Source: a bacterium (GTDB taxonomy: Bacteria > Patescibacteriota > Minisyncoccia > Phycocordibacterales > Zambryskibacteraceae). Taken from it: a stretch of DNA of 64,000 nt. The notes under the pieces are model-generated. The model ran no database searches. It was not told the DNA's origin and saw only the letters and a list, made by a program, of their open reading frames with translations. The DNA lies in the NCBI GenBank assembly GCA_030649135.1, contig JAUSGI010000006.1:32001-96000 (forward strand), read 5' to 3'. A program made the position numbers and the translations under genes. Below, in pieces: positions 1 through 49,979 of this stretch (its first letter is position 1; each line of letters starts with the position of its first letter).

Positions 1-1411
1 ACATGCTCTAGTTTACCTAACTCTCGCTTCCAAGCCTCAATTTCGCCCCTTAAGGTCTCTTTAATCCCCATGAACTCGTCGTCAGTCAGTTGTCCTCGCA
101 CCCTCATAAGCGCCAGCTCCTTCTGTTCATGTTGTTTCTGGTCTAATGTTTTTCGGAGAGACGTTTTTCTTTCAAACTCATTTTGCTTGTCATCCTTCTC
201 AAGAGCAGTGATGTTTTCAATACACCAATCGCTCAGTGCTTTTGATATTTTTAGCTTACTTCCGTAGTAATCAGCAAGGTATTTATCGATCGCAACTTCT
301 TCAACACACTTTTCTTTGCAGTTTGGATTTTTCTTTCTAGTGCAGTGATAGTAAATGTAGTGTAGGTATAATGGGGTTTCTATATCTGTAATAAGTACGC
401 TACATTTCGGACATTTTTCTTTGTCTCGGTAAGAGAACTTTAACTTGCAATCACAGATCACTTGATATTTATGTTCAGCCGTAACACCTCCGCCACAACC
501 TCCACATCTTGTTGTCGGATCTTTATATGGAAACATTTCTAGATTTACAGACGGTCTCTGTCTGCCTTTGTTACCCATAATCTTCTGTATGTGCCAATAA
601 TTCTCATCTGTGATCATTCGGGGAATACTCTCGTGTAGTTTGTGTCTCTCTCCATCCTTAGTGAAGAAGAACCCAGCATAGACAGGATTTTTTAGGATTG
701 TGCCTGCTATGTATGAGAGAACGAGTTTTTTCCCGCCCTGTCTTTTTCTTAATGGGGTGCGAAGACCCATCTCCTCATTTGCAATTCTTAAGAGTTTTCT
801 AAATGAGTACCGGCCGGTCAGATAGAGTTCGAGCAACTGCTTTATGAGTGGAAAACGATCTTTATCCACTAACCAACCCCTATTACCTCGCTCTTTGGAG
901 AGATCATTTATAAAACCTATAGTAGCAACGCCGTTAGGATAGCCCTTGTCTGCCCGCTCTCGTATACCTCTCTTTGTGTCAGTGCTTAGGTCGCGCACAT
1001 ATTGATTGGCCATACCAAGCTCAACAGACATGATGAGTACATTGTCGTCCGGGTAGTAGCTACGCCCGTAAGTTTGAATATGCTTTACTACGCTCTGTTG
1101 AAGCATCCAACTGATAGTGCCACCGTCCACAGGATTTCTTGCTAGACGATTTATTTTCCAAACAATTATCCCGTCTGCTTCACCTTTATTAAGTCGACTA
1201 ATCATATTTGTGAACACAGGTCTTCCGGGTGCCTTAGCCGACATTGATTCTTGAAGTATTTCAACAATCTCAAGTCCGTTCTCCGTTGCTAGTTCTTTGA
1301 GAACTTTTATCTGGTCTGGTATTGATTGCACTTGTCGATCCTCTGCATCACTCGACTTTCTCACATACATGAAGTACTTAAGTTTTCTGTCGTGTGTTTT
1401 ATTTATCATCT
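1..1411 (-). mobile_element. Large serine recombinase, partial: N-terminal ~470 aa in window, C-terminus beyond position 1
   Basis: Manual reverse-strand translation from the ATG at 1409-1411 runs open to the window edge. N-terminus MINKTHDRKLKYFMYVRKSSDAEDRQVQSIPDQ fits the resolvase catalytic motif (YxRxSS...Q). Downstream recombinase domain and zinc ribbon CGGCGG..CDC..CPKC. Absent from the ORF track because no stop lies in the window. Confidence 0.75.
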
Positions 1412-3546
1412 AATTTTCTGTTTACCCCAATAACAACATTACCGCTAGGTTCTGACAAGTCCAGCCCTTGTTTTTCGGCCACAACGCCTTGCCGGTCATA
1501 TTCTCGAACATGATGCCCTACCACATCCAAGTCAACTTTTGTTTTAGAGAGAGTATTTTCCCGCTCCGGCTCTGCCAAAATCAGCGAATCTTGGGAACAA
1601 GAGATGATGTTTGAAGAATCAGGGTTTTCTGTCGATTTCGTTTCTCGTTTTTCTCGTCCCGTATATATATGGGGAACAAGAGAACAAGAATAGAGATAGG
1701 GGTCGTTGCGCTTTCCAGCACCTGTACGTTGCACCGACCCTTTGGTAACTAAATCCCGTAACGCCTTACGCTTTAGTCCCGTGCGACCCTCGACCTCGTT
1801 TTCGATGGCCTTTTCGATAGATGACTCCTCTTGCTCGGATAGAAAAGTGAGAATCTCATCCGCAACACGCTGTATATCGTCATCTTCCTTCGTACCACCG
1901 AGAGACGTTGTCTGGGTTGTCTCATCGAATAGCAACACCGTCGACTCCGTATCTGTGCCGTAGCGTTGTTGGGTCTCGATGGTCCGTTTACCCTCGGTTC
2001 TTTTGAGAATAATCGCTGTATCGACAGAGCCAAATATTGCTGTCGAGCCAAGAACAGAATCGCCACCGCTCCTGTCACCTTTGCCCGCATGATGCACAAC
2101 CATCACATGCGCTCCATGCTCTCTGGCAAGCGTAAGCAATGGCGAGAGTGCTGCAGTCACTTCTGCGTAGTCGTTGCCATTTCTAATCGAGACGAAGCGA
2201 AATAATGTATCGATAATAACGAGCACAGGCTTGCGGGCGACAATTTCTTTCTCAAGCCATCTAGATGCTTCTTGAGGAACTGAACCAATATATGTGTACA
2301 AATCTTCACTACCTGTCGCTCCGAGCAACTTGAAGTGATTTTTAACCTCGCTTCGTTTTTCCTCAAGCGAAACATACAGGACAGCACCTTTTGTCGTTTG
2401 GCGACCAAGAAATATCTCGCCCTGCGCGACATAGAGTGCTAACTGCCTCGCGAGCGTTGACTTACCGACCTTTGGTTTCGCGACTATCATGGAAAATCCG
2501 CTTGTAGGAAGTAACCCATCAACGATCCAGCTTGTCTCTTCATCCGGCTCGTTCAGAAGTGTGCCAAGAGAGGTGAAGCCGAATTTTTCACGAACGACTT
2601 CTGCCGATTCTACAGCTGTTTTTACCGCAGAAGGACCCCGAAGTATATATAGGTCATTGAAATCAGTTGTAGTCCCTCCGTTGATTGTTTCACCATCCTC
2701 AAATTTCGGAATCGCTAATCGTGCGCCAATATTTGCCGCCTCTCTCGCTTTCAAGAGTCCGTTAGTATCAGCATCGGCACAGATAATTATTTCTGCATTT
2801 GGAAATTTCTTCCGCATTTCCTCAGCCGTTGCTCTTAGATTCGTGGAAGAAAATGAGATTGCTGTGGCATACCCTGTGGCCTCAAACACACTCGCGCCGG
2901 TGGCAAATCCTTCCACGATGCACAGTCGTTCCATTGGCACTCCTATGAGAAAGAAGCACTTTGCTGTTATAGCTTCACTCAGGAATTGTTTACCTCCATC
3001 AGCATCAATGAACTGTATAGACGAGAGAAAGCCGTTACCAGTGTAGAGCGGTAGTACCAGCTTGTTTCTCTTAAAACGAACTCCGTGTGGTAAAACTTGT
3101 TTCTTTTTGAGATATGGGAAGTCGACGGGTGCTTCGCTTGCAGCCTCCCAAATTTCTTGAGCATTTAGGGCGCCTGTGTGTTTTTCACTTCTTTGCGAAT
3201 CCTGTTTCTCCATAGCTGGCCGATGATAAATACCGTCTCCAAGATGTCGTGCAAACATAGTGAAATTTCCCTTTGCGTCGCACTTCTTGCAGTGGTATAA
3301 ACCTGTTTCGGAGGCAATGTATAGATGCGCCTCGTTGCCTTTGCTATCTCTGTCACAATCACCGAATATACAGTGGGTGATAAGTTCACCGTTCACTTCG
3401 CGAAATGGTATGTTTTTATTAGAGAGATACTCACGAACGGCGAGATATTCGTTTATTGCGTTGTTTTTCATGTACAGTCGGAGTTTCTTATTGAAATCCT
3501 GGTGTCCGACTGTACGTTCTTTCACCAGAACTTCAATAAAAAACAA
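1399..3546 (-). CDS. Primase-helicase fusion: zinc ribbon + Toprim primase + RecA-like (RepA/DnaB-type) ATPase
   Basis: 715-aa ORF. Zinc-ribbon pair HCIFGDC...YHCKKCDAKGN. Toprim motifs CIVEGFATGASV and IIICADADTNG. Walker A VAKPKVGKST and Walker B VLVIIDTL. The called start is TTG and the true start may lie downstream. Confidence 0.8.
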   Translation of the reverse strand: MFFIEVLVKERTVGHQDFNKKLRLYMKNNAINEYLAVREYLSNKNIPFREVNGELITHCIFGDCDRDSKGNEAHLYIASETGLYHCKKCDAKGNFTMFARHLGDGIYHRPAMEKQDSQRSEKHTGALNAQEIWEAASEAPVDFPYLKKKQVLPHGVRFKRNKLVLPLYTGNGFLSSIQFIDADGGKQFLSEAITAKCFFLIGVPMERLCIVEGFATGASVFEATGYATAISFSSTNLRATAEEMRKKFPNAEIIICADADTNGLLKAREAANIGARLAIPKFEDGETINGGTTTDFNDLYILRGPSAVKTAVESAEVVREKFGFTSLGTLLNEPDEETSWIVDGLLPTSGFSMIVAKPKVGKSTLARQLALYVAQGEIFLGRQTTKGAVLYVSLEEKRSEVKNHFKLLGATGSEDLYTYIGSVPQEASRWLEKEIVARKPVLVIIDTLFRFVSIRNGNDYAEVTAALSPLLTLAREHGAHVMVVHHAGKGDRSGGDSVLGSTAIFGSVDTAIILKRTEGKRTIETQQRYGTDTESTVLLFDETTQTTSLGGTKEDDDIQRVADEILTFLSEQEESSIEKAIENEVEGRTGLKRKALRDLVTKGSVQRTGAGKRNDPYLYSCSLVPHIYTGREKRETKSTENPDSSNIISCSQDSLILAEPERENTLSKTKVDLDVVGHHVREYDRQGVVAEKQGLDLSEPSGNVVIGVNRKLDDK

Positions 3547-3550
3547 AGAA

Positions 3551-3739
3551 TTAATTTATAATTGGTTTGACTATTGAACGTCTTTCCTCTGCCCGGGCAA
3601 GAGCAACACTAGCCAGTCGAGCAAGTCTCAACAGAGATACACCAAAAACCTGAGTTTCATCTTCACTCATTTGTTTTCCGTAATCTTTATAGAGAATAAG
3701 CCGAAGCTTCTCTATGGCTTGAGGTGAAAGAGTTACCAT
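3551..3739 (-). CDS. Small helical protein (~62 aa) inside the integrative element; function unknown (regulator/RDF-like?)
   Basis: Lower part of track ORF 3551..3796 from the internal Met MVTLSPQAIEKLRLILYKDYGKQMSEDETQVFGVSLLRLARLASVALARAEERR. No SD, like the other native genes. Confidence 0.35.
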   Translation of the reverse strand: MVTLSPQAIEKLRLILYKDYGKQMSEDETQVFGVSLLRLARLASVALARAEERRSIVKPIIN

Positions 3740-3987
3740 GCCGCGATCTCGTGGCTGTAGTGTGCGGTAACTTAAAAGGCTGCCACCGCATCCCACAACG
3801 TGAGATGAAATGGCAGCCCCTCAACTTTGCCTGCCCAGCGGGGTCCCACCCCCGATTTACTATCCTCGGGCTTATCCGGGGATACCTTGATACACCCCAC
3901 ATTGGCATGTATCAAGAGGTACGCTAACTTACTCAGTATAACAAAGTTTTGCTGATAAGTATGTGTAGATATCCACAGTAATAATGC

Positions 3988-4017
3988 TAGACAGAAAAAA
4001 GTTTGATACAATGTAAT
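3988..4017 (+). promoter_or_regulatory. Candidate sigma70-type promoter (TAGACA-18-TGTAAT) for the ORF-free structured RNA region
   Basis: -35 TAGACA at 3988-3993, 18-nt spacer, -10 TGTAAT at 4012-4017. Confidence 0.3.
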
Positions 4018-4024
4018 TGCTCTC

Positions 4025-4580
4025 GTGCATTAAGGGTGCATGAGCAAGGTCAGAAATGATAGCAACCGGCACTCAATTCAGATATGGCCTAAGTACCTAC
4101 GATAAACAAGTTTGAAGGAACCATCGTTTTGACTGGTACTTAGGTAGGGAGGAGGGTAAAACCAACTCCAAACCTTAGTCCCTTAAACTTTGGTTTGGGT
4201 GTCAGGCTGAAAAGTCTTACTCCTGAACTGAGTGCCGGTCATAGTGATGGTTCCTTTTGCTTATCCGTGGTCTAAAGGCAATAGGCTATGAAAAAGCTGG
4301 CTAGGCACATTTAACCCCACTGCCATTAACAACGGCACAATTTGGGGGCTGACAAATCTTGGGGCGTGGAACTTCTTCGCTCTACAGCATGTTGTCAGAC
4401 AGCAGCAGGCAACGATCAACGTACTGACCGCAAGGTTGGCACAGTTGGAAAATCGTCTCCCTGCTCCCGCACAGGCATCGCGGCCTCTATTGCCTAATAC
4501 GAATAATCGCCGTCTACCGTAAGGTAAACAGCGATTACTCTGGATTAAAGCAGGTGTCCCGAAAGGGACGCTTGCTTTTT
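4025..4580 (+). ncRNA. Candidate large structured ncRNA (~550 nt); class unknown, strand uncertain
   Basis: About 630 bp with no ORF over 60 aa in any frame. Long-range complementarity 4065-4080 with 4223-4238 (16 bp, one mismatch) and CCUAAGUACC with GGUACUUAGG near 4088-4140. GNRA hairpins UACC-GUAA-GGUA (4515-4526) and GUCCC-GAAA-GGGAC. Ends at a hairpin plus U-run. Confidence 0.4.
4548..4580 (+). terminator. Intrinsic terminator-like hairpin (AGCAGGUGUCCC-GAAA-GGGACGCUUGCU) followed by UUUUU
   Basis: About 13-bp stem with GAAA tetraloop and a T-run at 4576-4580. May also serve the convergent minus-strand gene 4639..5157. Confidence 0.55.
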
Positions 4581-4638
4581 ATTATACCCCCGCCAGTAAC
4601 GGCGAGAGCAACCAATTTACCCTACCTGTGTATAACTA

Positions 4639-5157
4639 TCAAGCTGTGCCTGATTCTGGCTCATATTCATACTGTTTGCGTACCTCCCGCATACTAACGG
4701 GGCGATAGTTCTCCGCATCTTCTATCATGCTGATTCTCGGCATTATTGCCATGTTTTCTGGTATGGACGTGTCAAACTCTTCACGACGCTTCCTTGCCAG
4801 ATACCACATAGCTACCTTTGGGTCCGTTTCTAGCCGGTCCACAATGGTCTTTCTAGCTCTTAGTACAGGCATTTGTCTAAGAGCCTCAATTATATGGGAA
4901 AACTCCGGATGCTTCTCTACGAAATACTTATACTGATCTATTGAAATACCTGCTGAAAAGCACGCTTCTTTGATAGTTGCATCGTATTTGAAGGCGGTGA
5001 TTAAGCGGAGGACTTTTCCCTGATCACGATACCAGGCGTTGGCTGAGTTTTCGACCCGCAAAATGCCAAAAGCTCTGTCTTTAATGGTGTACGCGTACTG
5101 ATCTAACTTAGTTACTTCTAATACTTGATGGGTAGTGATTTGGTTTTGGTCTGTCAT
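4639..5157 (-). CDS. HTH-containing hypothetical protein (possibly terminase-small-subunit-like or regulator)
   Basis: 172 aa. Segment TIKEACFSAGISIDQYKYFVEKHPEF resembles the HTH of TerS or transposase-OrfA-type proteins. Lies next to the recombinase/primase module. Confidence 0.45.
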   Translation of the reverse strand: MTDQNQITTHQVLEVTKLDQYAYTIKDRAFGILRVENSANAWYRDQGKVLRLITAFKYDATIKEACFSAGISIDQYKYFVEKHPEFSHIIEALRQMPVLRARKTIVDRLETDPKVAMWYLARKRREEFDTSIPENMAIMPRISMIEDAENYRPVSMREVRKQYEYEPESGTA

Positions 5158-5197
5158 TCAAGCATTATATCTCAACTTCTATAGCCAGAGAACTATC

Positions 5198-6094
5198 TTA
5201 ATACCAACAGAACTCAGCTTTTTCTCCTATCTGATCTTCAACGTACTTCGTAGCAGTCGTGATATCTCCAATCTCATCAATCAGTCCAGACTTCAAAGCG
5301 TCCTCGCCTATATAGGTTAATCCATTAGCCAGACTCTCAACAGCCTTTAATTCAAGGCCTCTGTTCGTTGCCACATCCTTGACAAAAACATTGTGAGCCT
5401 TGCGGACGTCAGATAATAGAATCTCCTTTTCTTCCTGTGTTAATGGTTTGTTTGGATCACCAGTATCCTTATATTTAGCAGAAGAGAGTTCTACGAATGT
5501 GTAACCGTCCTTTGCGTTTTTATTGGATTCATTTAGATAAGAAGCTGTTACCCCAATACCTCCCACATCAGAGATTTTAGAAGCGTATATTTTATCCGCA
5601 CCGGTAGCCGCCCAGTAGGCAGCCGAAGCTCCAATACCTCGTATGACAGCCACGCTTGGTTTATCAAGACTTTTTAATGCTCGCGCTATTTCCTCTCCAG
5701 CTACTCCATCACCTCCGGGTGAGTCAATCGACAACATCACTGCTTTGATATCTGGATCATTTTGAGCACGTAGTATCCCATACACGATATCTTCTGACGA
5801 GGAAACATCCACTTCCTGTCCCTCTGGCTGGCTTGGTAAGTATGTACTCAAGTACCCTTTGATTGAGAATGCCAAGACATTACAGTCATCCTGTTGTAAT
5901 GAGTCAGTGATAGTAGTCTCTTCAGAAAAGTATGATCCTGCAAGAAAAGCCAGCACTCCAATAACTACAGCTAGTATGAGTACTTTCTTCTTGCTGATCT
6001 TTTTCTCCTCGTTCATATTCAAGATTATAGCTCTATTTCTTAATATATTCCCTATTCCTTTCCTTATGTCTTTCAATGATTCTCTGTGGATCAA
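5198..6094 (-). CDS. sppA: Signal peptide peptidase SppA-like (S49 peptidase, ClpP/crotonase fold)
   Basis: Motifs SIDSPGGDGVAG and GIGASAAYWAATGADKIYA with an N-terminal TM helix. Likely true start at the internal Met (MNEEKK, coordinate 6016), which would remove the overlap with 6033..6473. Confidence 0.75.
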   Translation of the reverse strand: MIHRESLKDIRKGIGNILRNRAIILNMNEEKKISKKKVLILAVVIGVLAFLAGSYFSEETTITDSLQQDDCNVLAFSIKGYLSTYLPSQPEGQEVDVSSSEDIVYGILRAQNDPDIKAVMLSIDSPGGDGVAGEEIARALKSLDKPSVAVIRGIGASAAYWAATGADKIYASKISDVGGIGVTASYLNESNKNAKDGYTFVELSSAKYKDTGDPNKPLTQEEKEILLSDVRKAHNVFVKDVATNRGLELKAVESLANGLTYIGEDALKSGLIDEIGDITTATKYVEDQIGEKAEFCWY

Positions 6095-6475: not shown

Positions 6476-7417
6476 TTAATAAAAGATTGGCTTTTCACAA
6501 TACCAAGAATAGTTAGTCGGGTTTTTGTTAACACACTCTTGATATTGTTGCTGTTGGTATAGTTTGTATTCTAGATCGCTTTGTGGAGTATTAGTCCCGC
6601 ATTTAACCTCCCTGATTCTTCTTTGTTGTTGCGGAGATAGAGTTCGTAGTTCTGGCGGAGTAGGTTCTAATAAACAATCTGATTGTTGTTTTTGGGCTGT
6701 TATTGACTGTTGTTGCTGTTCACTTTTTGCCTTGTTATATTTCTCAACCTGAGCATCAATAAGTATTCGAAAACTCATATTACTCATGTAGCCATCGAGA
6801 AATTTAGAGTCTTTGCACGTTAGTGAGTTCACTTCTGGAACTTCCCCGCACATTTTAAACAGAGCACCCAGTTGTTGTGCCGTGGGAGGGGTAGCATACG
6901 GTTGTTGTATTTCCGCTTTGCTGTTCTTGCGAACCCACTGATTGCTTTCCTTTCTGTAGTATCTTTCTTCCCTCTGACGAGTAATGGAAATGGATGTCCA
7001 TCCCTTTGAATCAGCTTCGATGAAGAATCTTCGCTCCAGACTTTCCCAGGTCTCGACAGCAGGTGTCGCGATGTTTGAAGTAGTTATATTATTTATCGGT
7101 AGTGTCTCTTTTTCTATATTGTTTGCAGTAGACTGTTTCTCTTTTAACTTTTCTACCTCTCTTTTCAGCTTTTCAATTTCAACACTTTGATTGTCTACTA
7201 CGGGTACTGGTTGTACTTTTTCTGTAGTTACTGTTGGTTTTTCTACTTTATTCGGAACTACTACCGAAGAGGTTGCACTCTCGCTCGGCACTGGTTGTTC
7301 GATTTTTACTTCTTGCTTCTTATTAAATATTCTCCATGTAAATGGATTCCACCATGCCGCAAAAGCCACCTGAGGAATTATTATCGCAAGTAGGATTATT
7401 GGAATTATTTTTTTCAT
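6476..7417 (-). CDS. Hypothetical secreted protein (313 aa), Q/T-rich, several Cys pairs
   Basis: Signal peptide MKKIIPIILLAIIIPQVAFA. Its start overlaps the downstream 72-aa gene by 4 nt (ATGA), suggesting translational coupling. Confidence 0.55.
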   Translation of the reverse strand: MKKIIPIILLAIIIPQVAFAAWWNPFTWRIFNKKQEVKIEQPVPSESATSSVVVPNKVEKPTVTTEKVQPVPVVDNQSVEIEKLKREVEKLKEKQSTANNIEKETLPINNITTSNIATPAVETWESLERRFFIEADSKGWTSISITRQREERYYRKESNQWVRKNSKAEIQQPYATPPTAQQLGALFKMCGEVPEVNSLTCKDSKFLDGYMSNMSFRILIDAQVEKYNKAKSEQQQQSITAQKQQSDCLLEPTPPELRTLSPQQQRRIREVKCGTNTPQSDLEYKLYQQQQYQECVNKNPTNYSWYCEKPIFY

Positions 7418-7632: not shown

Positions 7633-7657
7633 TTTATTTTAGTGATTATTTATAACA

Positions 7658-7792
7658 CAAAGCCCGCTACCAGGAAGGCGCCTTTCGACCACCTCTACCA
7701 GAGTTTCCCCTGGTAACGCGACGAACGCCCTGATAACGGGTTCTCTATGTTCGTCGCGCTTTCTTGCCATGCCGGTGGTTGCCCGGTTTAGG
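7658..7792 (-). ncRNA. Conserved structured RNA motif, copy A (candidate cis-regulatory leader or riboswitch-like element)
   Basis: Shares conserved blocks (CCUAAACCGGGCA..CCGGCAUGGCAAGAAAG and CUGGUAGCGGGCUUU) and two covarying stems with copy B at 9021-9152. Sits in the 5' UTR of the 72-aa membrane-protein gene. G-U pairs appear only in the minus-strand reading. Confidence 0.5.
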
Positions 7793-7836
7793 TTTGTCGC
7801 ACATCCACAGTTGCATAATTCTATGGATGTTCTGAA

Positions 7837-7899
7837 AAGTTGAGCTTCGTTAGAGTCCTGTTTCTTATCTGATACTCTAGCTAAGGTAATTGCTTTCAT
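7837..7899 (-). pseudogene. Resolvase-like N-terminal remnant (MKAITLARVSDKKQDSNEAQL); the rest of ORF 7639..7899 reads through RNA copy A
   Basis: The first ~21 codons match the small serine recombinase catalytic motif (x-ARVS-xxxQ). Downstream sequence has no recombinase similarity. Confidence 0.25.
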
Positions 7900-8687: not shown

Positions 8688-8990
8688 TTATTTATTAAAT
8701 TCAAACCGACCGAAGAACCAAGAGAGTAAGCTTCTACTCCTCATTTTAAAGAAATAGCTTATGGAAATATAACCTGTCACTGCTGATATAAATCCCTCAA
8801 AAATACTTTCGGTAAATAGATAAATGACTATCCCAATGATGATCAGGGATAGGATGACTATGAATAGGTCAGCTAGTTTGGCCAGAATATAACGTACGAA
8901 TAGTTGACCACGACCCCTCTCCTTTATTGCTCTTAATTCTTCAAGGGCATCTCTCGCTATACCGTTAGCTTTAGATATATGTTCTTCCAT
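8688..8990 (-). CDS. Small 2-TM membrane protein (~100 aa); track ORF 8688..9089 trimmed to the internal Met
   Basis: The first 33 codons of the track ORF read through RNA copy B. Real start likely MEEHISKANG at 8990. TM segments LADLFIVILSLIIIGIVIYLF and AVTGYISISYFF. Confidence 0.45.
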   Translation of the reverse strand: MEEHISKANGIARDALEELRAIKERGRGQLFVRYILAKLADLFIVILSLIIIGIVIYLFTESIFEGFISAVTGYISISYFFKMRSRSLLSWFFGRFEFNK

Positions 8991-9020
8991 ATTGTTGCTT
9001 GATCGTCTTGTAATCTTTTG

Positions 9021-9152
9021 CGGGCACAAAAAGCCCGCCACAGGTAGAGGCCGAGGCCCCTCATACCGGTTTCCCGATATGGCGATCAAGCGACCCTATG
9101 ACGGGGTTTTTACCTTGATCGACTTTTTGCCATGCCGGTGCCCGGTTTAGGC
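9021..9152 (-). ncRNA. Conserved structured RNA motif, copy B
   Basis: Aligns with copy A. Stems GUCGAUCAAG/CUUGAUCG and CAUAUCGGG-AAAC-CGGUAUG covary with the copy-A stems. Ends in the hairpin GCGGGC-UUUUUGU-GCCCGC just before the start codon of the 100-aa gene. Confidence 0.5.
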
Positions 9153-9276
9153 CTATTTTCTTCACACTACCATTTTACCAGTTTTACAGAGTTAAGCTAA
9201 TGGCCTCAAATGTTCTCCTTCGAGCAGGGCAACTAAAGGTGGCAAAAGCGGTAGTGCACGGTATACTTCTTCTAAA

Positions 9277-10497
9277 ATGTTATATACCAAGCCCATTACT
9301 GAAATTACTTATGTCGATGTCATTGACTTCTGCAAACAGTCGTTAAAAGAGAATATAAACCTGGACTACAAGCTGGATGTCGATACTGGCATAGCCAAGA
9401 CCATAGCGGCAATGGCTAATACTTGGGGTGGGCTGATTGTGGTCGGTGTTGAAGACGAGGATAGTAAGCCCAAGCTACCTGTCGAGGGTATTCCATATCG
9501 CGAGCACATTGAGGAGCAGATAAACAACATTATTCTAGGTAATATCACTCCGCCAACCTTTCCAGAAGTTAAGGTGTGCCTGTCTGAAAATAAAGAGAAA
9601 ATGTTTGTGGTAATCAGGATTCCACAAAGCAATCTCACGCCTCATGCTATTAGGGGCAATACCAGAGTCTACATCAGAACCAATACTAGCAATGAACCTG
9701 AAGAAGAAATAACTATAGAAAAGTTAGGGTGGTTAGTTGATAAGCGAAAAAAGTCACTCGACCTGAAAGAACAACTACATCAGGAAGCTGATAGACGGTT
9801 TGAAAAACTATGCAGGATACAAGGAATAAAAAATTTTAGACATAACGATGTTAGTCTTATGACGTCTCCTCTATATCCATTCGAAATTCTAACTAAAAAG
9901 GAGCAACTTATCAGGGAGATACCTGAAAGGATGCGGACTGAAGCCTGGGGTAGATACTTCCCAAAGACTTTACATAGAACAAGCTACGAAGCTATTAATG
10001 GCGGTAGTTATGCCTTTATCTCGAATGGTCAGTCAGGATACTTTCTATATGAGGAATTTAATCATTACGGTCTTTTTTATCATAGGGAAGATTGGTGTAA
10101 AAGTGATAAAGATGAAGAAACTGGAGAAATCAAGCACACAGGTTTTTTGCATAGCTATTTATCCGAGATAGACCTAATGATTGAATCCGCAAGTAAATTC
10201 TATTCTGCAGTAGGATACTGGGGTCTTGTCGAAATAAAAGTTATTGCCAGAGAGTTAGAAGAAGTCAATTTTAGGGATTTACCAGCTCCAAAAGGTTTCT
10301 ATAAATTCGATAAACTTGAGAAGAGACCCATTGATAATAATCTTGAATTTACCAAAGAAGTTTCGGTCAGAGAACTGGTAGAAAAAAGGGTGGCACTAGT
10401 AACATATTTGATGCTCGATTTGAGCTGGGCACTTGGCTTCACTCATATCGATGAAGAAGGTATAGGAAGACTTCTAGAGGAGCAGGGTCGTCTCTAG
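9277..10497 (+). CDS. Schlafen/AlbA_2 (divergent AAA, putative DNA-binding) domain protein, defence-associated
   Basis: N-terminal motif IAKTIAAMANTWGGLIVVGVEDED matches the AlbA_2/Schlafen core. C-terminal ~200 aa unassigned. Adjacent and convergent to the Type III R-M system. Confidence 0.7.
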   Translation: MLYTKPITEITYVDVIDFCKQSLKENINLDYKLDVDTGIAKTIAAMANTWGGLIVVGVEDEDSKPKLPVEGIPYREHIEEQINNIILGNITPPTFPEVKVCLSENKEKMFVVIRIPQSNLTPHAIRGNTRVYIRTNTSNEPEEEITIEKLGWLVDKRKKSLDLKEQLHQEADRRFEKLCRIQGIKNFRHNDVSLMTSPLYPFEILTKKEQLIREIPERMRTEAWGRYFPKTLHRTSYEAINGGSYAFISNGQSGYFLYEEFNHYGLFYHREDWCKSDKDEETGEIKHTGFLHSYLSEIDLMIESASKFYSAVGYWGLVEIKVIARELEEVNFRDLPAPKGFYKFDKLEKRPIDNNLEFTKEVSVRELVEKRVALVTYLMLDLSWALGFTHIDEEGIGRLLEEQGRL

Positions 10498-10689: not shown

Positions 10690-13203
10690 TCACTCTGAAA
10701 GTGAAACATCTAAGGATGACCTGAAATTTTCTATATTTTTATCTCTGATACTTTGGAAATATCCGTTGAAATCTGTCGGGGTAAGGAAGTTGAATTTGTA
10801 TGATATGCCTTTCTTATTCTTTCGTAAATACGCATTTATCCTTTCAAAATGAGCGAGCGCATATTCGTTTTTCTTTTTGTTCTCCACGGACGGCTCGCTA
10901 ATCTCGTCGTCGTCTTTAATCTCAACAATCAAAATCAACTTGCCGGTCTTGATAAAAAAGTCGGGATTGAATTTTCCACGCTTTGGATGTTCGCCTTTCT
11001 TCCAAAAATAATCAATCTCGTAGAAACTCATCGGCGTTGATTTAATCCATGCGTCAATGTGTTGCGTGTTTTCGGATTTTACTAGCTCTTTAACGAATCT
11101 GCGCTCATTGTCATGATCCGAGACAACAGCATTGAGCGGTGTTTTGAAATCATAATGATTGGCGACTTTTGCGCACTTAAACCCGCTCCCTTCCTCCACG
11201 GCTTCTTCGTAAAATTCTTTATACTCATCCGGCATATTTTCTTTCGTTTTGCTTGTATAGAAAATCGTTTTGCCATTTTTCAGGTCGGATGCGCTTGCGC
11301 TCTCCTGCGGTCGCTCGGTCGTTAATATCGGATAGTAATTTGTCGGCTCAAAATCATAGCGAACCACTTGCGCTGCTTTTCTTTGAAGCGTTCCGAGCGA
11401 CTGCAAAAACTTTTGCCGCATATTTTCGGTAATAACCTTGTTGTCTGTTTCTTTAAGCGATTTTTTTACAATTTCCTCCAGTTTTTCAACGGGAAATTGC
11501 TTTATGTAAAATTTGCGGTCTTCGCCGTCCACCAAATCCTCAAACCGCTGGAACATCACCTCGGCAACTTCGTGCGTGGTATAGGTCTTATGCTTGATTT
11601 TCGTTTTCCATTGTGTCCGCACGCCGGTATCTGCTTCCTCAAACTCAACTGTCATATCCTCCACAGGAAGTTCCGTTGAAAGATCAACATAACCCTTTTT
11701 GAATAACTGATATGGCTTCTCCATTTTGTAAGTTTCGGTGCGCGGCTTCGGATCGTACTCAATGTTCAGCAGTTCAAAATTAAATTCGGACGAGGTAACT
11801 GGAAATGTTGGTATTCGTTTTTCAAATTCCAAAACTTCATGGACAAGGTGTCGTATGTCATCCGCCCATCTATCATGATTGAAAACAGTTACTTCCGGTT
11901 GCGCGCCTTTCCAGCCGTCCGGCACGCGTAAGCCGCGCCCAAGCACTTGAGCGATAAGCAACTTACTTTCAAACGCTCTTTTTTCGTGGGGGACAATTTG
12001 AAAAACGCGTTTTACATCCCAACCCTCGTTGAGCATGGAAACCGACAAAATCCACTCGACCTTACTGTTTGCGTTGTTTACGCTTGCGAGGCGCGGCAAA
12101 TCTGGTGCGTCGCTATGAATAACAAGCACCTGTTCGTCAATCTGCTCTCGGCTTTTGCCGGTCTCTTCTTTCAAAAACGCTTTGAATTTTTCTGCTACAT
12201 CTTTACACCCACTAATATCTTTCGTAACGATAATTGTAAGCGGGCGCAATTTATGCGCTTTCAATTTGCGCCTTATTTCTTCGTGGTGATTAAGTACCAA
12301 CTGCCACTTTTCTGTTTCCGGTTGTCTCGTCTGCGGCATTTCGGCAACATACTGCACTTTCTTAACAAATTTTTCTTCCATTGCTTGCCGCAACGAGTAA
12401 CGATAAATCACATCGGAAAAATACTCGTTGCCGAGATAGCAAGTGCCAGAAACGCCAATGACATAACGAAAGCCGTAATCTGGATCGGTCAAAAATTCCT
12501 TCCACTTTTTCGCTTTGCTCGCCACTTCGTTTGCGACATGGTGCGTCTCGTCGTTCAAAATGAGTGTCCTGTCTCCTTTGCCCTGCAGGCTGTCGCGGAT
12601 TGACGAGCGCACATGAGCGAGAATTGCGTGATAGTTTTCTATACAAATACTGCCAGATACAATGCTTTCGCTCGCGTTTATGACGTGCGGAGCGTTCACT
12701 GCTGCGTTTGCGGGTAAAAGGTCGCGCAAGTCGGCGTTTCCTGCCAGTAGCTCAAATTTTTCCAGCAATCCGGTCTCTATCGTCGTGGACGGACACAACA
12801 CTAAAACTCTATCAACCGCGCCCTCGGCAAGCATGATCGCCGCAATGCCATACATCACATAGCTTTTGCCCGTGCCGGTCGCCAAATCAAGCGAGGCGGC
12901 GAGTTGGTCCGGCAATTGCAAATACCGTTCCAGATTTCCGATTGAGCCGTATTTATCGCGCAAAACTTCGTTATGCTCAAAATTCTTTCCAGCCAAATCG
13001 CGCAAATCCCGATACTCGCCGCCGAGTAAATACCGCGTAGCGGCGCGGATTGCGTCTTTTTGATACTCACGAATGCCGCAAAGCTCATCAAGAAACGCCT
13101 CGTACTTATTTTCGTCCCATTTGCGACGATCAACCGAAGTGCTGACATCAAGCACTAGGTCTTCATTATGAAATCGTTTTGTTCCGTTTGTTCTTCTTGG
13201 CAT
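10690..13203 (-). CDS. res: Type III restriction enzyme Res subunit (SF2 helicase plus C-terminal PD-(D/E)xK nuclease)
   Basis: 837 aa. Helicase motif I LATGTGKSYV and motif II LILNDETHHV. C-terminal NPDFF...LILIVEIKDDD nuclease motif. Immediately downstream of mod. Confidence 0.85.
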   Translation of the reverse strand: MPRRTNGTKRFHNEDLVLDVSTSVDRRKWDENKYEAFLDELCGIREYQKDAIRAATRYLLGGEYRDLRDLAGKNFEHNEVLRDKYGSIGNLERYLQLPDQLAASLDLATGTGKSYVMYGIAAIMLAEGAVDRVLVLCPSTTIETGLLEKFELLAGNADLRDLLPANAAVNAPHVINASESIVSGSICIENYHAILAHVRSSIRDSLQGKGDRTLILNDETHHVANEVASKAKKWKEFLTDPDYGFRYVIGVSGTCYLGNEYFSDVIYRYSLRQAMEEKFVKKVQYVAEMPQTRQPETEKWQLVLNHHEEIRRKLKAHKLRPLTIIVTKDISGCKDVAEKFKAFLKEETGKSREQIDEQVLVIHSDAPDLPRLASVNNANSKVEWILSVSMLNEGWDVKRVFQIVPHEKRAFESKLLIAQVLGRGLRVPDGWKGAQPEVTVFNHDRWADDIRHLVHEVLEFEKRIPTFPVTSSEFNFELLNIEYDPKPRTETYKMEKPYQLFKKGYVDLSTELPVEDMTVEFEEADTGVRTQWKTKIKHKTYTTHEVAEVMFQRFEDLVDGEDRKFYIKQFPVEKLEEIVKKSLKETDNKVITENMRQKFLQSLGTLQRKAAQVVRYDFEPTNYYPILTTERPQESASASDLKNGKTIFYTSKTKENMPDEYKEFYEEAVEEGSGFKCAKVANHYDFKTPLNAVVSDHDNERRFVKELVKSENTQHIDAWIKSTPMSFYEIDYFWKKGEHPKRGKFNPDFFIKTGKLILIVEIKDDDEISEPSVENKKKNEYALAHFERINAYLRKNKKGISYKFNFLTPTDFNGYFQSIRDKNIENFRSSLDVSLSE

Positions 13204-13205
13204 AA

Positions 13206-15077
13206 TTATTTTTTAGCTTTGGCACGAAGCACTTTTGGTGTAATGACAATGCGTGATTCGTTGCCGTAAATATCCAAAAATACGAGCATGACATCACCTT
13301 TAATTTCTTTGGTGGGTAGCTCTATTTTCCACTTGTTATCTTTTATCGCGCTCGCGTAAAACGCTTTATCCAAATCAAATACCTTTCCGTTGTAATCGTA
13401 ATCTACCATCACCATTGAAAGCGCGTCGTGCTTGCTAATTTTATCCTCTCCGCGCAGTCGCGCCTTGCTCTCAAACTTCTTTATTTTAACAGACACGGCT
13501 TGTTTCTTTGCGGCAAGCTCAAGCTCAACTACCGGCGGCTGGATAAAATCAAAACCCACCGCCTCAACGGTTTCGTTGATAGCCATTTCGTCGTTTGGCT
13601 GAACGAGCGCGGAAAATTTACGTCGGTGCAGTTCGTTGATAAAAGAATACGGAATACGAAGCGCGTAATATCGCACACCGTCCATTTCGAGATAATCCTC
13701 TTGGAAAAGGAACGCGCCGCGCGGAGCAATAATAAAGCAACGATCTCCAACGGCTTTTCCAATGCTTGCGTGCAAGTCTGCTATTGTCTGCTGGCTAATC
13801 TGTCCTTCCTTAAAATGATTGAAAACATGAACGCTTGAACCTTGTCGCTTGCCATCCATTTGGAAGCCATGAATTTTGTGTGGCTCGTCTTTGCACTCAA
13901 AAAGCTGGAGCGCAAAAAATCGCCAATCTTCCCACGGCAAATTTCTCAAATTCTCAAAATCATACAAACCAGCGTTATAAAGTGTGAACGGCTTGGCGGC
14001 AAGCGACTCACCAGTATTGCTGATATTTTTGCGTAAAGTTAGCATTCGTTTTTGAATGGTATAAACTGCGAGCTTACTTACATCAATTGCAATCCAGCGT
14101 CGCTCTAACTTTTCGGCTGTCGCGGAAGTCGTTCCCGAACCCGCAAAAACATCCATAACAATATCACCTTTATTTGAGGAAGCTTCAATAATGCGCTTAA
14201 TCAATGCCTCTGGTTTCTGTGTCGGAAAATCAACTCGCTCTTTTGAATCCGCCTCTGTACCTAAAGGATAAATATCTTCCCAAACATCCCTACATACAGA
14301 ATTGTGATACCACTTTTGTTTGTCTTTATCGAAAAATTCAGGATATTTTTCACTAAAGTTATATTTCTTTTGCTGATACGATTTGTAGTATTGTGTGTTA
14401 AAAAGAAAATTACCGTTTTTTGCGTAGTAATAAATATTATCGTGTTTTCTGGCAAAGAAATTTTTACTTACACCACCAGTCCTATAACTCCAAATAATCT
14501 CATTTATAAAATTTTGTTCTCCAAAAATTTCATCCATTAAAACTTTTATGTAATGGCCTTTCCTATAATCAAGATGCACATAAATTCCACCATCATTTGC
14601 GAGTAACTCTTTTAAAAGAATAAGCCTCTTTCGCATAAATTCTAAAAATGCGCTGCCAGCAATTTTATCTTGATATGCTTTTTGATCTTGGCTTCCTTTG
14701 AAATCTCGCCGTGTTGAAAATGGTGGATCAATGTAAATAAGCCGAACGCCCGGCGTGCCGTCGGCGTTCACCAGCTTTCCATCTGCTTTCATTTGCAAAA
14801 GCGTCTTTATAGCCTGCAAATTGTCGCCAAAAATAAGTTTGTTGTGCCAATCAACCCCGTTCTGTCCAAAAGTGCTGACTTCTTGAAACGGCACAGCCAT
14901 TGTGTCGGCGAGAATTTGCTCCTCGGTTTCTTTGCCGTTGTAGACAAGTTCGTACTCGCGGCGTTCGGGCGGAAAAAACTCTCGCGCCCACTCTGCCGGA
15001 AGTTCCTCGCCGGTTTCGGTCAGCTTGAGTCCTCGTTTTAGCAACTCGTATATCTTTTCTTGACGACGTTTGTCCAT
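13206..15077 (-). CDS. mod: Type III R-M Mod subunit (beta-class N6-adenine/N4-cytosine DNA methyltransferase)
   Basis: 623 aa. Motif IV IYIDPPF precedes motif I VMDVFAGSGTTSATA (beta-class order, motif IV before motif I). mod-res operon arrangement. Confidence 0.85.
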   Translation of the reverse strand: MDKRRQEKIYELLKRGLKLTETGEELPAEWAREFFPPERREYELVYNGKETEEQILADTMAVPFQEVSTFGQNGVDWHNKLIFGDNLQAIKTLLQMKADGKLVNADGTPGVRLIYIDPPFSTRRDFKGSQDQKAYQDKIAGSAFLEFMRKRLILLKELLANDGGIYVHLDYRKGHYIKVLMDEIFGEQNFINEIIWSYRTGGVSKNFFARKHDNIYYYAKNGNFLFNTQYYKSYQQKKYNFSEKYPEFFDKDKQKWYHNSVCRDVWEDIYPLGTEADSKERVDFPTQKPEALIKRIIEASSNKGDIVMDVFAGSGTTSATAEKLERRWIAIDVSKLAVYTIQKRMLTLRKNISNTGESLAAKPFTLYNAGLYDFENLRNLPWEDWRFFALQLFECKDEPHKIHGFQMDGKRQGSSVHVFNHFKEGQISQQTIADLHASIGKAVGDRCFIIAPRGAFLFQEDYLEMDGVRYYALRIPYSFINELHRRKFSALVQPNDEMAINETVEAVGFDFIQPPVVELELAAKKQAVSVKIKKFESKARLRGEDKISKHDALSMVMVDYDYNGKVFDLDKAFYASAIKDNKWKIELPTKEIKGDVMLVFLDIYGNESRIVITPKVLRAKAKK

Positions 15078-48233: not shown

Positions 48234-48309
48234 TGGAGCCGGAGGCGAGATTCGAACTCGCGACTTACCCCTTACGAAGGGGTTACTCTACCAACTGAGT
48301 TACTCCGGC
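48234..48309 (-). tRNA. tRNA-Thr (anticodon CGU), CCA encoded
   Basis: Manual cloverleaf: acceptor GCCGGAG/CUCCGGC. D arm ACUC-AGUUGGUA-GAGU. Anticodon loop UUCGUAA. T arm GCGAG-UUCGAAU-CUCGC. Discriminator U plus CCA. Confidence 0.85.
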
Positions 48310-48360
48310 TTACTGCTCTACTTCACCCCGCCTAGCCCGGGCGGGGCAAGCTGAGCTAAG
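48310..48360 (-). promoter_or_regulatory. Conserved upstream element of tRNA-Thr(CGU) with GC hairpin; second copy at 48472-48525
   Basis: Both tRNA-Thr genes are preceded by AGCUCAGCUUGCCCCGCC-(5-6 nt)-UAGGYGGGGUGAAGUAGAGCA, containing the hairpin CCCCGCC/GGCGGGG. Confidence 0.4.
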
Positions 48361-48396
48361 GTGGCACTACTTCGCCTAGGCTACGAAGTGCGAAGC

Positions 48397-48471
48397 TGGA
48401 GCCAGAGGGGAGAATCGGACTCCCGACCTCTTTCTTACCATGAAAGCGTTCTACCACTGAACTACTCTGGC
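48397..48471 (-). tRNA. tRNA-Thr (anticodon GGU), CCA encoded; T-loop UCCGAUU (C55)
   Basis: Manual cloverleaf: acceptor GCCAGAG/CUCUGGC. Anticodon loop AUGGUAA. T arm GGGAG-UCCGAUU-CUCCC. Confidence 0.8.
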
Positions 48472-48525
48472 TTATTGTGCTCTACTTCACCCCACCTAAG
48501 TCAGGCGGGGCAAGCTGAGCTATCT
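48472..48525 (-). promoter_or_regulatory. Conserved upstream element of tRNA-Thr(GGU); second copy of the element at 48310-48360
   Basis: See previous feature. About 90% identity over about 45 nt. Confidence 0.4.
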
Positions 48526-48600
48526 TGGCAAACAAAAGAATGGCTCTAATCTTATAGAGTTTAAAGCCCTTTTGCAAAATAGCGTCCGGATGACTGGTCG

Positions 48601-49485
48601 CTAATCGTCATCCTCCTCTCCTTCCTCATCTTCCTGCTTATCAAGCTTGTCTTCTACTTCCTCCAGACTTTTATCCGCCTGCTTCGCTAGTTGTTTGGCC
48701 CCTTGGTAATTTTCCTTTTGAAATAACTCTTTGGCTTGGGCCAGGAGTCTGTCAAATTTGGTAAAGAAACCCTGGGTCAGAACAACGCCATTCTTTTCAG
48801 CGTCGGCCAATAATTTTTGTTTCTCTGCCTCTGCTTCTCTGATGGCTTGTTCCGCGTCATCTTTCTTATCCAGTTCTTTCTCAATTTTGTCTTCTTCCTG
48901 TTCCATAGCTTTTTTCTGTTCGTCTTTTTGGAGTTCCAACGCCTTCTTCTGGCTATCTATATCAAGCAATTCTTTGGTTAAGGACTCCACCAGAGCGGTG
49001 TTGCCAGCTTGCCGAGCCTCTTGGATTTGATCTTTGAGTTCTTCCTTCCTGATTTTCAAAACTCGCTTCTGGTCTTTAAAAGACTGGTCAAGGGCACTTC
49101 GGGAAGCTTCAAATTGGTCATCAAGCTCTTTGGCAAGCTTACTGACATCTTTACCTTCGGTTTTTTCTTTCGTGATTATGTCGGAAACCCTGGCAAGGTG
49201 CGCGTCCATTCTGCTTTGGGCAACCTCAAGACCTTTGGCATCTATGCCGTCTGTTTCCAAGAGAATTTTAATCTCGGCAATACGTTCGGAAGCAAAACTA
49301 ATCTGCAGACGAGCTTTTGCCTCTGGACTGAAAGCCAGAAACTCTTGTAAAGCCTCACCCAATTTGTCCAAGAAATAAAAAGAGTTTAGCGGAGTCAGTC
49401 CGGCATTCGGCAACTCTGGCTCGGCCTGGGCCAGCGAGATAAACGGAACCAGCAACAAAACCGCAAGATATTTTTTGGTCTTCAT
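48601..49485 (-). CDS. Hypothetical secreted coiled-coil protein (294 aa), acidic C-terminal tail
   Basis: Signal peptide MKTKKYLAVLLLVPFISLAQA. E/K/Q-rich heptad-like sequence. Confidence 0.55.
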   Translation of the reverse strand: MKTKKYLAVLLLVPFISLAQAEPELPNAGLTPLNSFYFLDKLGEALQEFLAFSPEAKARLQISFASERIAEIKILLETDGIDAKGLEVAQSRMDAHLARVSDIITKEKTEGKDVSKLAKELDDQFEASRSALDQSFKDQKRVLKIRKEELKDQIQEARQAGNTALVESLTKELLDIDSQKKALELQKDEQKKAMEQEEDKIEKELDKKDDAEQAIREAEAEKQKLLADAEKNGVVLTQGFFTKFDRLLAQAKELFQKENYQGAKQLAKQADKSLEEVEDKLDKQEDEEGEEDDD

Positions 49486-49559
49486 GAATAAGCCTAAAAT
49501 ATTAATACTTAGATTATACCATGGTGCGCTGGGTAGTGGACCGCGGAACTAGGATTATG

Positions 49560-49790
49560 CTATCTCCTTTCTATCACAATTCCAATACATGCGTTTCCCC
49601 CACCAGCATCAGGGCAAGAGCGGCCATCGGGTGTTTTGCAAGAATTATCGATTTTAATTCCTAAACAGTCACACTCCCTGTGGATATACCCCCACGCGTA
49701 ATTCGTATAATCGCAAGATTTGGGATAAATAACATAACCAATAAGGACAAGCCCTGTTATTATTAAAATAATTTGAATAGTTCTTTTCAT
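49560..49790 (-). CDS. Small secreted Cys-rich protein (76 aa)
   Basis: Signal peptide/TM IQIILIITGLVLIGYVIY, then 7 Cys. Confidence 0.4.
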   Translation of the reverse strand: MKRTIQIILIITGLVLIGYVIYPKSCDYTNYAWGYIHRECDCLGIKIDNSCKTPDGRSCPDAGGGNACIGIVIERR

Positions 49791-49792
49791 AG

Positions 49793-49866
49793 CGCGGTCA
49801 ACCGGACTTGAACCGGCAACCTCTCCCGTGACAGGGGAGTGCTCTAACCAGTTGAGCTATGACCGC
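49793..49866 (-). tRNA. tRNA-Asp (anticodon GUC), no encoded CCA
   Basis: Acceptor GCGGUCA/UGACCGC. D arm GCUC-AACUGGUUA-GAGC. Anticodon loop CUGUCAC. T arm GCCGG-UUCAAGU-CCGGU. Discriminator G. Confidence 0.85.
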
Positions 49867-49908
49867 AATGGATTACAAATTAGCAGATTTTCGCCACTAA
49901 TTCAATTG

Positions 49909-49979
49909 TGCCGGTGAATGGAATCGGACCATTGTTTGAGGCTTATGAGTCCTCTGTTCTGCCATTGAACTACACCGGC
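49909..49979 (-). tRNA. tRNA with CAU anticodon (Met or Ile2); short, T-loop UCCGAUU (C55)
   Basis: Acceptor GCCGGUG/CACCGGC (G1-C72 paired). D arm GUUC-AAUGGCA-GAAC. Anticodon stem has an A31-G39 mismatch. Loop CUCAUAA. 4-nt variable loop. No CCA. Confidence 0.65.

Follow-up and report, generated by a model that had tools for sequence, protein, structure and literature searches.

What is encoded in the gap between the primase-helicase operon and the gene for a TerS-like protein in the integrated mobile element that makes up the first ~15 kb of our window, a 64,000-nt stretch of a 107-kb patescibacterial contig (JAUSGI010000006.1)? The NCBI annotation between the two neighboring genes, Q7R69_01745 and Q7R69_01750, is empty, and an independent Logan assembly has the identical sequence over the region. 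A preliminary description of this DNA had proposed a large structured non-coding RNA (ncRNA) at positions 4025-4580 of the window and had left its strand open. Our analysis points to a different answer. We consider it moderately probable that positions ~4020-4588 constitute a self-contained plus-strand mRNA of a rare small helical protein, that this mRNA has an attenuator-like leader, and that the whole unit is moron-like cargo of the element.

The region is strongly folded. Positions 4020-4590 (571 nt) gave z-scores of -8.69 on the plus strand and -6.80 on the minus strand, with none of 100 shuffled sequences as stable. DNA for comparison was available from five lineages, namely the window and four related loci (L018, L019, L021 and L025), and the 310-nt leaders of all five showed z-scores of -5.3 to -6.5 on the strand of the open reading frame (ORF) described below and weaker values on the opposite strand. 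As a background, 42 other 310-nt pieces of the window gave a mean z-score of -0.59 (standard deviation, 1.38; minimum, -3.3). The folding is beyond chance, in agreement with the earlier proposal of a strongly structured RNA with a promoter-like site and a terminator of its own.

The region had also been described as free of ORFs from 4012 to 4638. ORFs with a canonical start indeed reach only 52 amino acids (aa) on the minus strand and 51 aa on the plus strand, but a stop-to-stop frame of 76 codons on the plus strand (4292-4519, followed by TAA) has homologues. This frame had been missed in the list of ORFs because it contains no ATG, GTG or TTG before codon 49. Its translation had four matches among 1.84 billion representative proteins (60-106 aa, E-values of 8e-7 to 9e-4, 41-56% identity), and a scan with a degenerate pattern added a locus from a metagenome-assembled genome (MAG) of Saccharibacteria (L024/L025). 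The invariant core of the family reads W-x-L-T-x-x-G-A ... Q ... I ... L. When the five lineages were compared, the third codon position differed about twice as often as the first or the second, and the ratio of synonymous to non-synonymous differences among differing codons was 134/208 in this frame versus 20/329 and 27/325 in the other two frames of the strand. Judged from these substitutions, selection on 4292-4522 acts on the protein and not on the RNA sequence. Coding traces in homologues had been set beforehand as the sign against a non-coding RNA; since homologues have a conserved coding frame, a non-coding reading of 4292-4522 does not hold. The strong fold of the proposed RNA stands, but about 230 of its 555 nt are a conserved protein-coding frame.

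The encoded protein is modeled by AlphaFold2 as one long amphipathic helix (residues 14-55), with low confidence (predicted local distance difference test score, 61), and its maximum 19-residue Kyte-Doolittle mean of 0.87-1.21 is insufficient for a membrane span. All four clusters of the family are singletons at 90% identity in a set of ~15 billion predicted proteins. Searches of NCBIfam, PHROGs, PADLOC and PDB with the small protein returned no meaningful match, and Pfam returned only SlyX (PF04102), below threshold (18.5 bits versus a cut-off of 30 bits). The protein consensus had no match in phages, plasmids or IMG/VR, and DNA similar to the region was not found in phage and plasmid records. 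Both the protein family and the leader RNA appear to be undescribed and rare.

The leader is dominated by a long branched helix that we call the 'rod'. In the window, the 37 positions of its arms include 28 Watson-Crick and 6 G.U pairs, and its tip carries a GAAA-capped hairpin at 4204-4217. In all five lineages, no inverted repeat in the vicinity of the ORF is longer than the rod, whose arms measure 26-37 nt; it lies 87-160 nt upstream of the conserved tryptophan codon and encloses 38-75 nt of smaller hairpins, one of which is always capped by GAAA or GAGA. The rod pairs pooled across lineages comprise 126 Watson-Crick, 14 G.U and 2 A.C pairs. Given this excess of G.U over A.C pairs, the rod helix has been selected as RNA on the plus strand, which argues against a DNA palindrome. 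The strand that had been left open is the plus strand, as indicated by the same bias, by the orientation of the conserved frame and by the U tracts that follow the rods.

These U tracts lie immediately 3' of the rods. Within the 8 nt after the rod, six are U in the window (UUUUGCUU), and seven are U in each of L019 (UUUUUUGUU, at a locus of 58% GC), L021 (UUUUUAUU) and L025 (UUUUGUUUU). Measured against the positional background of each locus, the enrichment was significant (combined Fisher p 1.4e-4). Taken together, the rod and the U tract look like a terminator placed between promoter and gene, at which transcription may end.

The two helices noted in the preliminary description, one long-range and the other with strands about 40 nt apart, are real. 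The former joins segments A and E over 17 nt with 16 complementary positions, and in the latter CCTAAGTACC (segment B) is perfectly complementary to GGTACTTAGG (segment D), as read directly from the sequence. However, they represent an alternative fold and not the most stable one. Segment A is a near-copy of the rod 5' arm in which U-to-C changes convert G.U pairs into G-C pairs, and segment B is a perfect complement of the same arm; the fold that contains A:E and B:D and the rod are mutually exclusive. In minimum-energy folds of the nascent chain, A:E and B:D prevailed up to 4240, and the rod replaced them once 4260 was included. An upstream competitor for the 3' arm was detected in the window (z = -3.6), in L018 (17 bp, z = -5.6) and in L025 (z = -3.3). 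Long-range pairing between the rod arms and the translation start region was not significant. A 21-codon ORF preceded by a Shine-Dalgarno (SD) sequence spans A and B. L019, L021 and L025 also have SD-preceded mini-ORFs on the 5' side of their rods, and none was found in L018. A role of the window's mini-ORF as a sensor for attenuation is speculative.

The 3' end of the unit carries both of the GNRA hairpins that had been reported. UACC-GUAA-GGUA (4515-4526) forms the top of an imperfect 40-nt hairpin that has the stop codon in its loop. This hairpin recurs almost base for base in L019 (6089-6121), although the two proteins are only ~45% identical; the C-terminal NNRRL shared by the window and L019 may follow from the conservation of the hairpin and so reflect RNA-level rather than protein-level constraint. 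The second, GUCCC-GAAA-GGGAC (4556-4569), caps the closing hairpin with its U run, which we found as described, with 14 pairs followed by TTATTAT. A resemblance of this hairpin to domain V of group II introns had been pointed out. The GAAA loop and the AGC in the stem are present, but a bulge-free 14-bp stem followed by a U run is an intrinsic terminator. Because of these two properties, and because on the opposite strand the hairpin lies 60 nt past the stop codon of the convergent TerS-like gene, we regard it as a terminator shared by both transcription units. At the 5' end, the letters of the proposed promoter, TAGACA (3988-3993) and TGTAAT (4012-4017) with 18 nt between them, are present as claimed. 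Promoter-like sites also precede leaders elsewhere (a similar TTTGTACAAT in L018 and TGGACA-16-TATAAT in L021), which is weak evidence. The features of the unit and its surroundings are listed in the following table.

Features of the plus-strand unit, of the corresponding rods in related loci and of the surrounding element (window coordinates unless a locus is named)
Feature	Position	Strand	Remarks
Candidate promoter	3988-4017	+	TAGACA-18-TGTAAT; predicted start ~4019-4024; weak, read from sequence
Alternative extended -10, TGATACAAT	4004-4012	+	Read from sequence
5'-terminal hairpin, CUCGUGCA-UUAAGGG-UGCAUGAG	4022-4044	+	Holds GUGCAUG, the AUG of the mini-ORF and, in its loop, an SD-like AAGGG
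Leader mini-ORF, 21 codons (MSKVRNDSNRHSIQIWPKYLR)	4040-4105	+	SD-preceded; spans A and B; stop codon 4103-4105
Competitor segment A	4065-4081	+	Pairs with 4223-4239 (segment E, rod 3' arm)
Competitor segment B	4089-4098	+	Pairs with 4136-4145 (segment D, rod 5' arm)
Leader rod	4115-4256	+	5' arm 4115-4151, branched tip 4152-4219, 3' arm 4220-4256
Rod arms, L018	653-686 / 725-758
Rod arms, L019	5649-5674 / 5733-5758
Rod arms, L021	2734-2762 / 2818-2846
Rod arms, L025	2232-2263 / 2339-2370
U tract, UUUUGCUUAU	4255-4264	+	Immediately 3' of the rod
8-codon ORF	4288-4314	+	ATG AAA AAG CTG ... TAA; SD-like AAGG 9 nt upstream of the ATG
Conserved small-protein frame	4292-4522	+	76 codons and TAA (4520-4522); core from W (TGG 4343)
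Imperfect 40-nt hairpin	4501-4540	+	Stop codon inside the GUAA loop
Intrinsic terminator	4547-4588	+	14-bp stem 4547-4578, GAAA loop, then UUAUUAU
Large serine recombinase gene	1-1390	-	Truncated by the left end of the window
Toprim/AAA_25 primase-helicase gene	1399-3546	-
62-aa gene (Q7R69_01745)	3551-3739	-	First gene of the divergent primase-helicase operon
TerS-like gene, 172 aa (Q7R69_01750)	4639-5157	-	Convergent with the plus-strand unit
Schlafen/AlbA_2 protein gene	9277-10497	+	Defense-type cargo of the element
ResIII helicase gene, with nuclease domain	10690-13203	-	Defense-type cargo of the element
N6/N4 DNA methyltransferase gene	13206-15077	-	Defense-type cargo of the element

Based on these features, we propose the following course of events. 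Transcription would begin at ~4020 on the plus strand and would produce a leader of ~260 nt before the small-protein frame. The nascent RNA would first fold into A:E and B:D, which resembles an antiterminator and would permit read-through. If A and B were masked, either by a ribosome on the 21-codon ORF or by another factor, the rod would form, transcription would stop at ~4260, and a leader RNA of ~240 nt would be released. When transcription continued, the unit would be closed by the stop-codon hairpin together with the strong terminator.

Several observations weigh against this proposal. The promoter is weak by consensus, and the consensus promoter scan did not call it. The leaders of the five lineages have no alignable sequence, so that RNAalifold on the five rods gave no consensus; even the leaders of L019 and L025 could not be aligned, though their proteins are 75% identical over 48 aligned residues. 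An exception is the hairpin GRCUGAAAAGUCUU, of which 13 of 14 nt are common to the window and L025 and which has the same place in the rod tip of both. The U tract of L018 is uninformative because this locus is AT-rich. Intrinsic terminators do not usually have arms of 26-37 nt or branched tips of 38-75 nt, and the rods might rather be stability elements or elements for RNase III. The upstream competitor was not detected in L019 or L021, and the peptides of the leader mini-ORFs are mutually dissimilar and may have arisen by chance. Finally, the small-protein frame of the window is preceded by a TGA (4289-4291) and offers no canonical start until codon 49, and in L025 the ATG of L019 is replaced by AGG and the frame is shifted close to the 3' end. 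It is thus possible that the copies in the window and in L025 do not yield the protein.

The start of the window copy deserves closer consideration. L019 and L021 have an intact ORF with a canonical start and a ribosome-binding site. In the window, an SD-like AAGG precedes the ATG at 4288 with the spacing seen in L019 and L021. This ATG, however, stands one base out of frame (-1 register) relative to the conserved frame, and the two would be joined if the A5 run at 4291-4295 lost one A. In addition, ATT 4325 aligns exactly with the ATG of L021 and of the protein P0134, six codons before the invariant tryptophan, and L018 also has ATT at this aligned position. Since there is no canonical start, translation in the window must be either very weak or recently lost. 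Weak translation might proceed from AUU 4325, by reinitiation after the 8-codon ORF or by slippage on the A5 run. We also considered an alternative genetic code that would open a longer ORF, and rejected it: TGA is a genuine stop here, because it terminates several long ORFs of the window, among them the ResIII helicase gene.

Is the unit native to this position of the element? Relatives of the element were found at loci L002-L010, whose TerS-like protein is 84% identical, and at the more distant L011. They have a methyltransferase/helicase pair similar to that of the window. In all of them, the slot directly after TerS is taken by a conserved gene of 248/257 aa (for example, L002 10608-11354 and L011 5819-6592), which is followed by a small ORF resembling the 62-aa gene of the window. 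The DNA similarity between the window and these elements ends at the 3' end of the TerS-like gene, and tblastn found no remnant of the 248-aa protein in the window; a decayed copy of the relatives' gene was rejected for the same lack of any trace. Therefore, the plus-strand unit is an element-specific replacement or insertion and not a decayed gene copy. The small ORF was not found in any other element locus examined, and neither the sequence of the region nor the small ORF was present on the contigs that encode the closest homologues of the primase (65-71% identity). Scans of IMG/VR and GTDB genomes for relatives by means of the primase found nothing. Thus, the presence of the unit varies among related elements, while in other lineages it occurs in unrelated, non-element chromosomal contexts. 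Its GC content (46.8%) shows no compositional contrast to the surroundings (45.5%). With a terminator that is evident, a promoter that is plausible and a presence that varies among related elements, the best-supported view is that the unit is cargo that separates the packaging module of the element from its replication module.

Two of the homologous units have peculiar surroundings. In the Saccharibacteria MAG, the unit (L025 2180-2790) lies directly 3' of a transfer-messenger RNA (tmRNA) gene (1604-2008), and tmRNA genes are classic integration hotspots. In L018, 35-nt inverted repeats (102-136 and 1194-1228, 86% complementary, 1057 nt between them) flank the whole small-ORF unit. This contig is AT-rich, and its gene call includes an in-frame TGA translated as tryptophan, which may point to an organism with code 4/25.

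Known RNA families were searched for with the covariance models of Rfam, a check that the preliminary description had suggested. On both strands of 3500-5200, no family was found at E<=10; across the whole window at gathering threshold, the only matches were four transfer RNAs (tRNAs) and two LOOT RNAs, all elsewhere. The four related loci yielded nothing relevant at E<=10 apart from the tmRNA upstream of the unit in L025. RNAs of the raiA and 6S types, for which covariance models were also applied, were not found either. In the absence of any Rfam match, group II introns, GOLLD, ROOL, OLE, HEARO, RNase P and tmRNA are excluded, and with them the earlier idea of an RNA of the GOLLD/ROOL/OLE type, which has no match even at the permissive threshold. 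The template of a diversity-generating retroelement, or another repeat, was rejected as there is no second copy of the sequence in the window. Iterons or direct repeats were not found in the region, nor was an ORF for a reverse transcriptase or maturase, and the sole conserved frame there is that of the 76-codon helical protein.

Could the RNA itself be the functional product? In this case, the ~240-nt leader RNA or the whole ~560-nt transcript would act as a riboregulator or protein-binding RNA, and the frame would be secondary or dead. The exceptional fold would suit such a role, as would a rod and U tract that could release a discrete RNA, the 13/14-nt GAAA hairpin common to the window and L025, and the fact that the structured leader is kept in copies without a canonical start, namely in the window, in L025 and, should it follow the standard code, in L018. 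However, the frame is under clear purifying selection at the protein level, and the leader is unconserved even where two lineages have proteins of 75% identity, unlike most trans-acting RNAs; moreover, Rfam gave no match and no complementarity to a target was identified. We regard this explanation as possible but unlikely. A related reading, to which we give a small chance, is that the leader with its rod and U tract and the small protein form an undescribed regulatory module of Patescibacteria-like genomes. The ~240-nt RNA, set free by conditional termination, would then act itself alongside the protein in a dual-function locus, and in copies like that of the window, where the start of the protein has been lost, only the RNA role would have been kept within the mobile element. 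Alternatively, the unit may be the decaying remnant of a small-gene cassette, already affected by start loss or frameshift and without function in the element. The ATG that stands one base off in the absence of a canonical in-frame start, the AGG and the frameshift of L025, and the extreme rarity of a family whose 90% clusters are singletons are in line with decay, but no stop interrupts the 76-codon frame so far, the leader, the stop-codon hairpin and the terminator are intact, the G.U pairs have been maintained, and the ATT that the window and L018 have exactly in place of the relatives' ATG might serve as a weak but functional start. A remnant therefore seems to us rather improbable.

A type I toxin-antitoxin-like locus, in which the mRNA of a toxic small protein is kept inactive by a metastable leader and controlled by an antisense RNA, would account for a long structured leader with a metastable-to-stable transition, for local hairpins over the start regions, for copies with inactivated starts, and for the location in a mobile element here and beside a tmRNA in L025. 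Such a locus is nevertheless very unlikely: the protein is not membrane-like (hydropathy of 0.87-1.21), its predicted structure is one long amphipathic helix, the toxin families of PADLOC and Pfam gave no match, and neither an antisense RNA nor a promoter for one was found. The only promoter-like site on the minus strand is a weak one at 4642-4614, inside the end of the TerS gene, with nothing conserved across the lineages. The position between the packaging and replication modules, beside the primase and TerS genes, also calls to mind an element acting at the DNA level, such as a replication origin, a packaging site or an attachment site, with the inverted repeats as protein-binding palindromes; the minus strand folds well too (z = -6.8). 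We consider this highly improbable, given that a DNA palindrome would lack the plus-strand bias of 14 G.U versus 2 A.C pairs, that the same architecture accompanies the small ORF in chromosomal contexts outside elements, that iterons and direct repeats are missing, and that related elements do without the sequence altogether. As for the remnant of a group II intron or a known large ncRNA (GOLLD, ROOL, OLE, HEARO, RNase P or tmRNA), the GAAA loop and AGC of the terminal stem and the GUGCAUG near the 5' end recall an intron. There is practically no chance that this explanation holds, because the Rfam search was negative at E<=10 for 3500-5200 and for the four related loci, no reverse-transcriptase ORF is present, the terminal hairpin lacks a bulge and leads into a U run, and GUGCAUG is one half of a simple 5' hairpin.

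The remainder of the element contains other features of interest. The minus strand carries the majority of its genes, and its attachment site lies outside the window because the serine recombinase gene runs past the left end. The closest homologue of the primase that bears a taxonomic name comes from a Patescibacteria MAG. For the 62-aa protein, no homologue was found in the protein database; by eye only, its motif DYG...LLRLxR...LAR was also seen in uncalled small ORFs of L002 (~11443-11640) and of L011 (gap 6593-7270), of which the former precedes a serine recombinase gene and the latter a 563-aa gene without Pfam annotation. On the minus strand, 3740-3935, the presumed 5' untranslated region of the 62-aa/primase operon, contains hairpins at 3769-3827, 3839-3854 and 3886-3916 (z of about -4.5 to -5); thus, the 900-nt gap carries two divergent structured leaders. 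Beyond the TerS-like gene, the element encodes an S49 head-protease-like protein and several proteins of no assigned function, together with two full-length LOOT RNAs (RF03000) on the minus strand (7675-7794 and 9046-9153; 61 and 65 bits versus a gathering threshold of 46). The mechanically called ORFs 7639-7899 and 8688-9089 may be spurious because the LOOT RNAs overlap them. No link between the region and these two RNAs was detected. Past the element, the window continues with host genes, such as that for TypA/BipA, and the host part also includes a cluster of four tRNA genes (48237-49979, minus strand).

To our knowledge, RNA-based regulation and small proteins are almost unstudied in the Patescibacteria (candidate phyla radiation, CPR), whose genomes are compact. 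The locus offers a concrete candidate, namely a leader with two defined competing folds, one of which is terminator-like, and a protein family that standard gene callers have mostly overlooked. It also calls for caution in genome scans, as an 'ORF-free, highly structured' region may conceal a short conserved frame without a canonical start. The unit is a cis-acting structured leader with a small protein gene, and it belongs to none of the curated families of RNAs and proteins with which it was compared. We do not regard it as a system of an entirely new category; its parts can be compared with known ones.

The closest likeness of the leader is to attenuators of the trp, his and pyrBI type (and, for translation, those of ermC and cat), which also have a hairpin and U tract between promoter and gene. 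B:D would correspond to the 2:3 antiterminator and D:E to the 3:4 terminator of the trp type, and the SD-preceded leader ORF ends just past segment B. In contrast to the short hairpin of these systems, the stem here is a rod with arms of 26-37 nt and a branched tip of 38-75 nt, there is a second competitor (A) that pairs with the 3' arm, the leader peptide has no runs of regulatory codons, the competitor was detected in only three of the five lineages, and termination is predicted from sequence. As cargo, the unit resembles the morons of prophages in having a promoter-like site and a terminator of its own, in its orientation opposite to the flanking operons, and in being missing from the closest related elements, which have another gene in the slot, while it is found elsewhere in unrelated contexts. 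It differs from them in its lack of compositional contrast and in a host element that is not a demonstrated phage.

Dual-function RNAs, such as Staphylococcus RNAIII/hld, SgrS/SgrT and SR1/SR1P, are likewise highly structured transcripts of ~0.5 kb with a small ORF, but the locus shows no evidence for pairing targets, its leader is unconserved, and conservation lies in its ORF, which accounts for 40% of the RNA. With type I toxin mRNAs (hok/sok, tisB/istR) it shares the long leader, metastable and stable folds, a small ORF, inactivated starts and the association with a mobile element, whereas its protein is without a transmembrane segment and an antisense RNA gene was not detected. The terminal hairpin has the GAAA cap and the stem AGC of group II intron domain V and is distinguished from it by the missing 2-nt bulge, the missing other domains, intron-encoded protein and covariance-model match, and by the U run that follows. 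Finally, the protein is similar in size to the small coiled-coil protein SlyX and has a helical glutamine-rich segment like it, with weak matches for three of the five family members (best E-value, 0.003); at 18.5 bits, below the 30-bit cut-off, this is probably a generic coiled-coil similarity.

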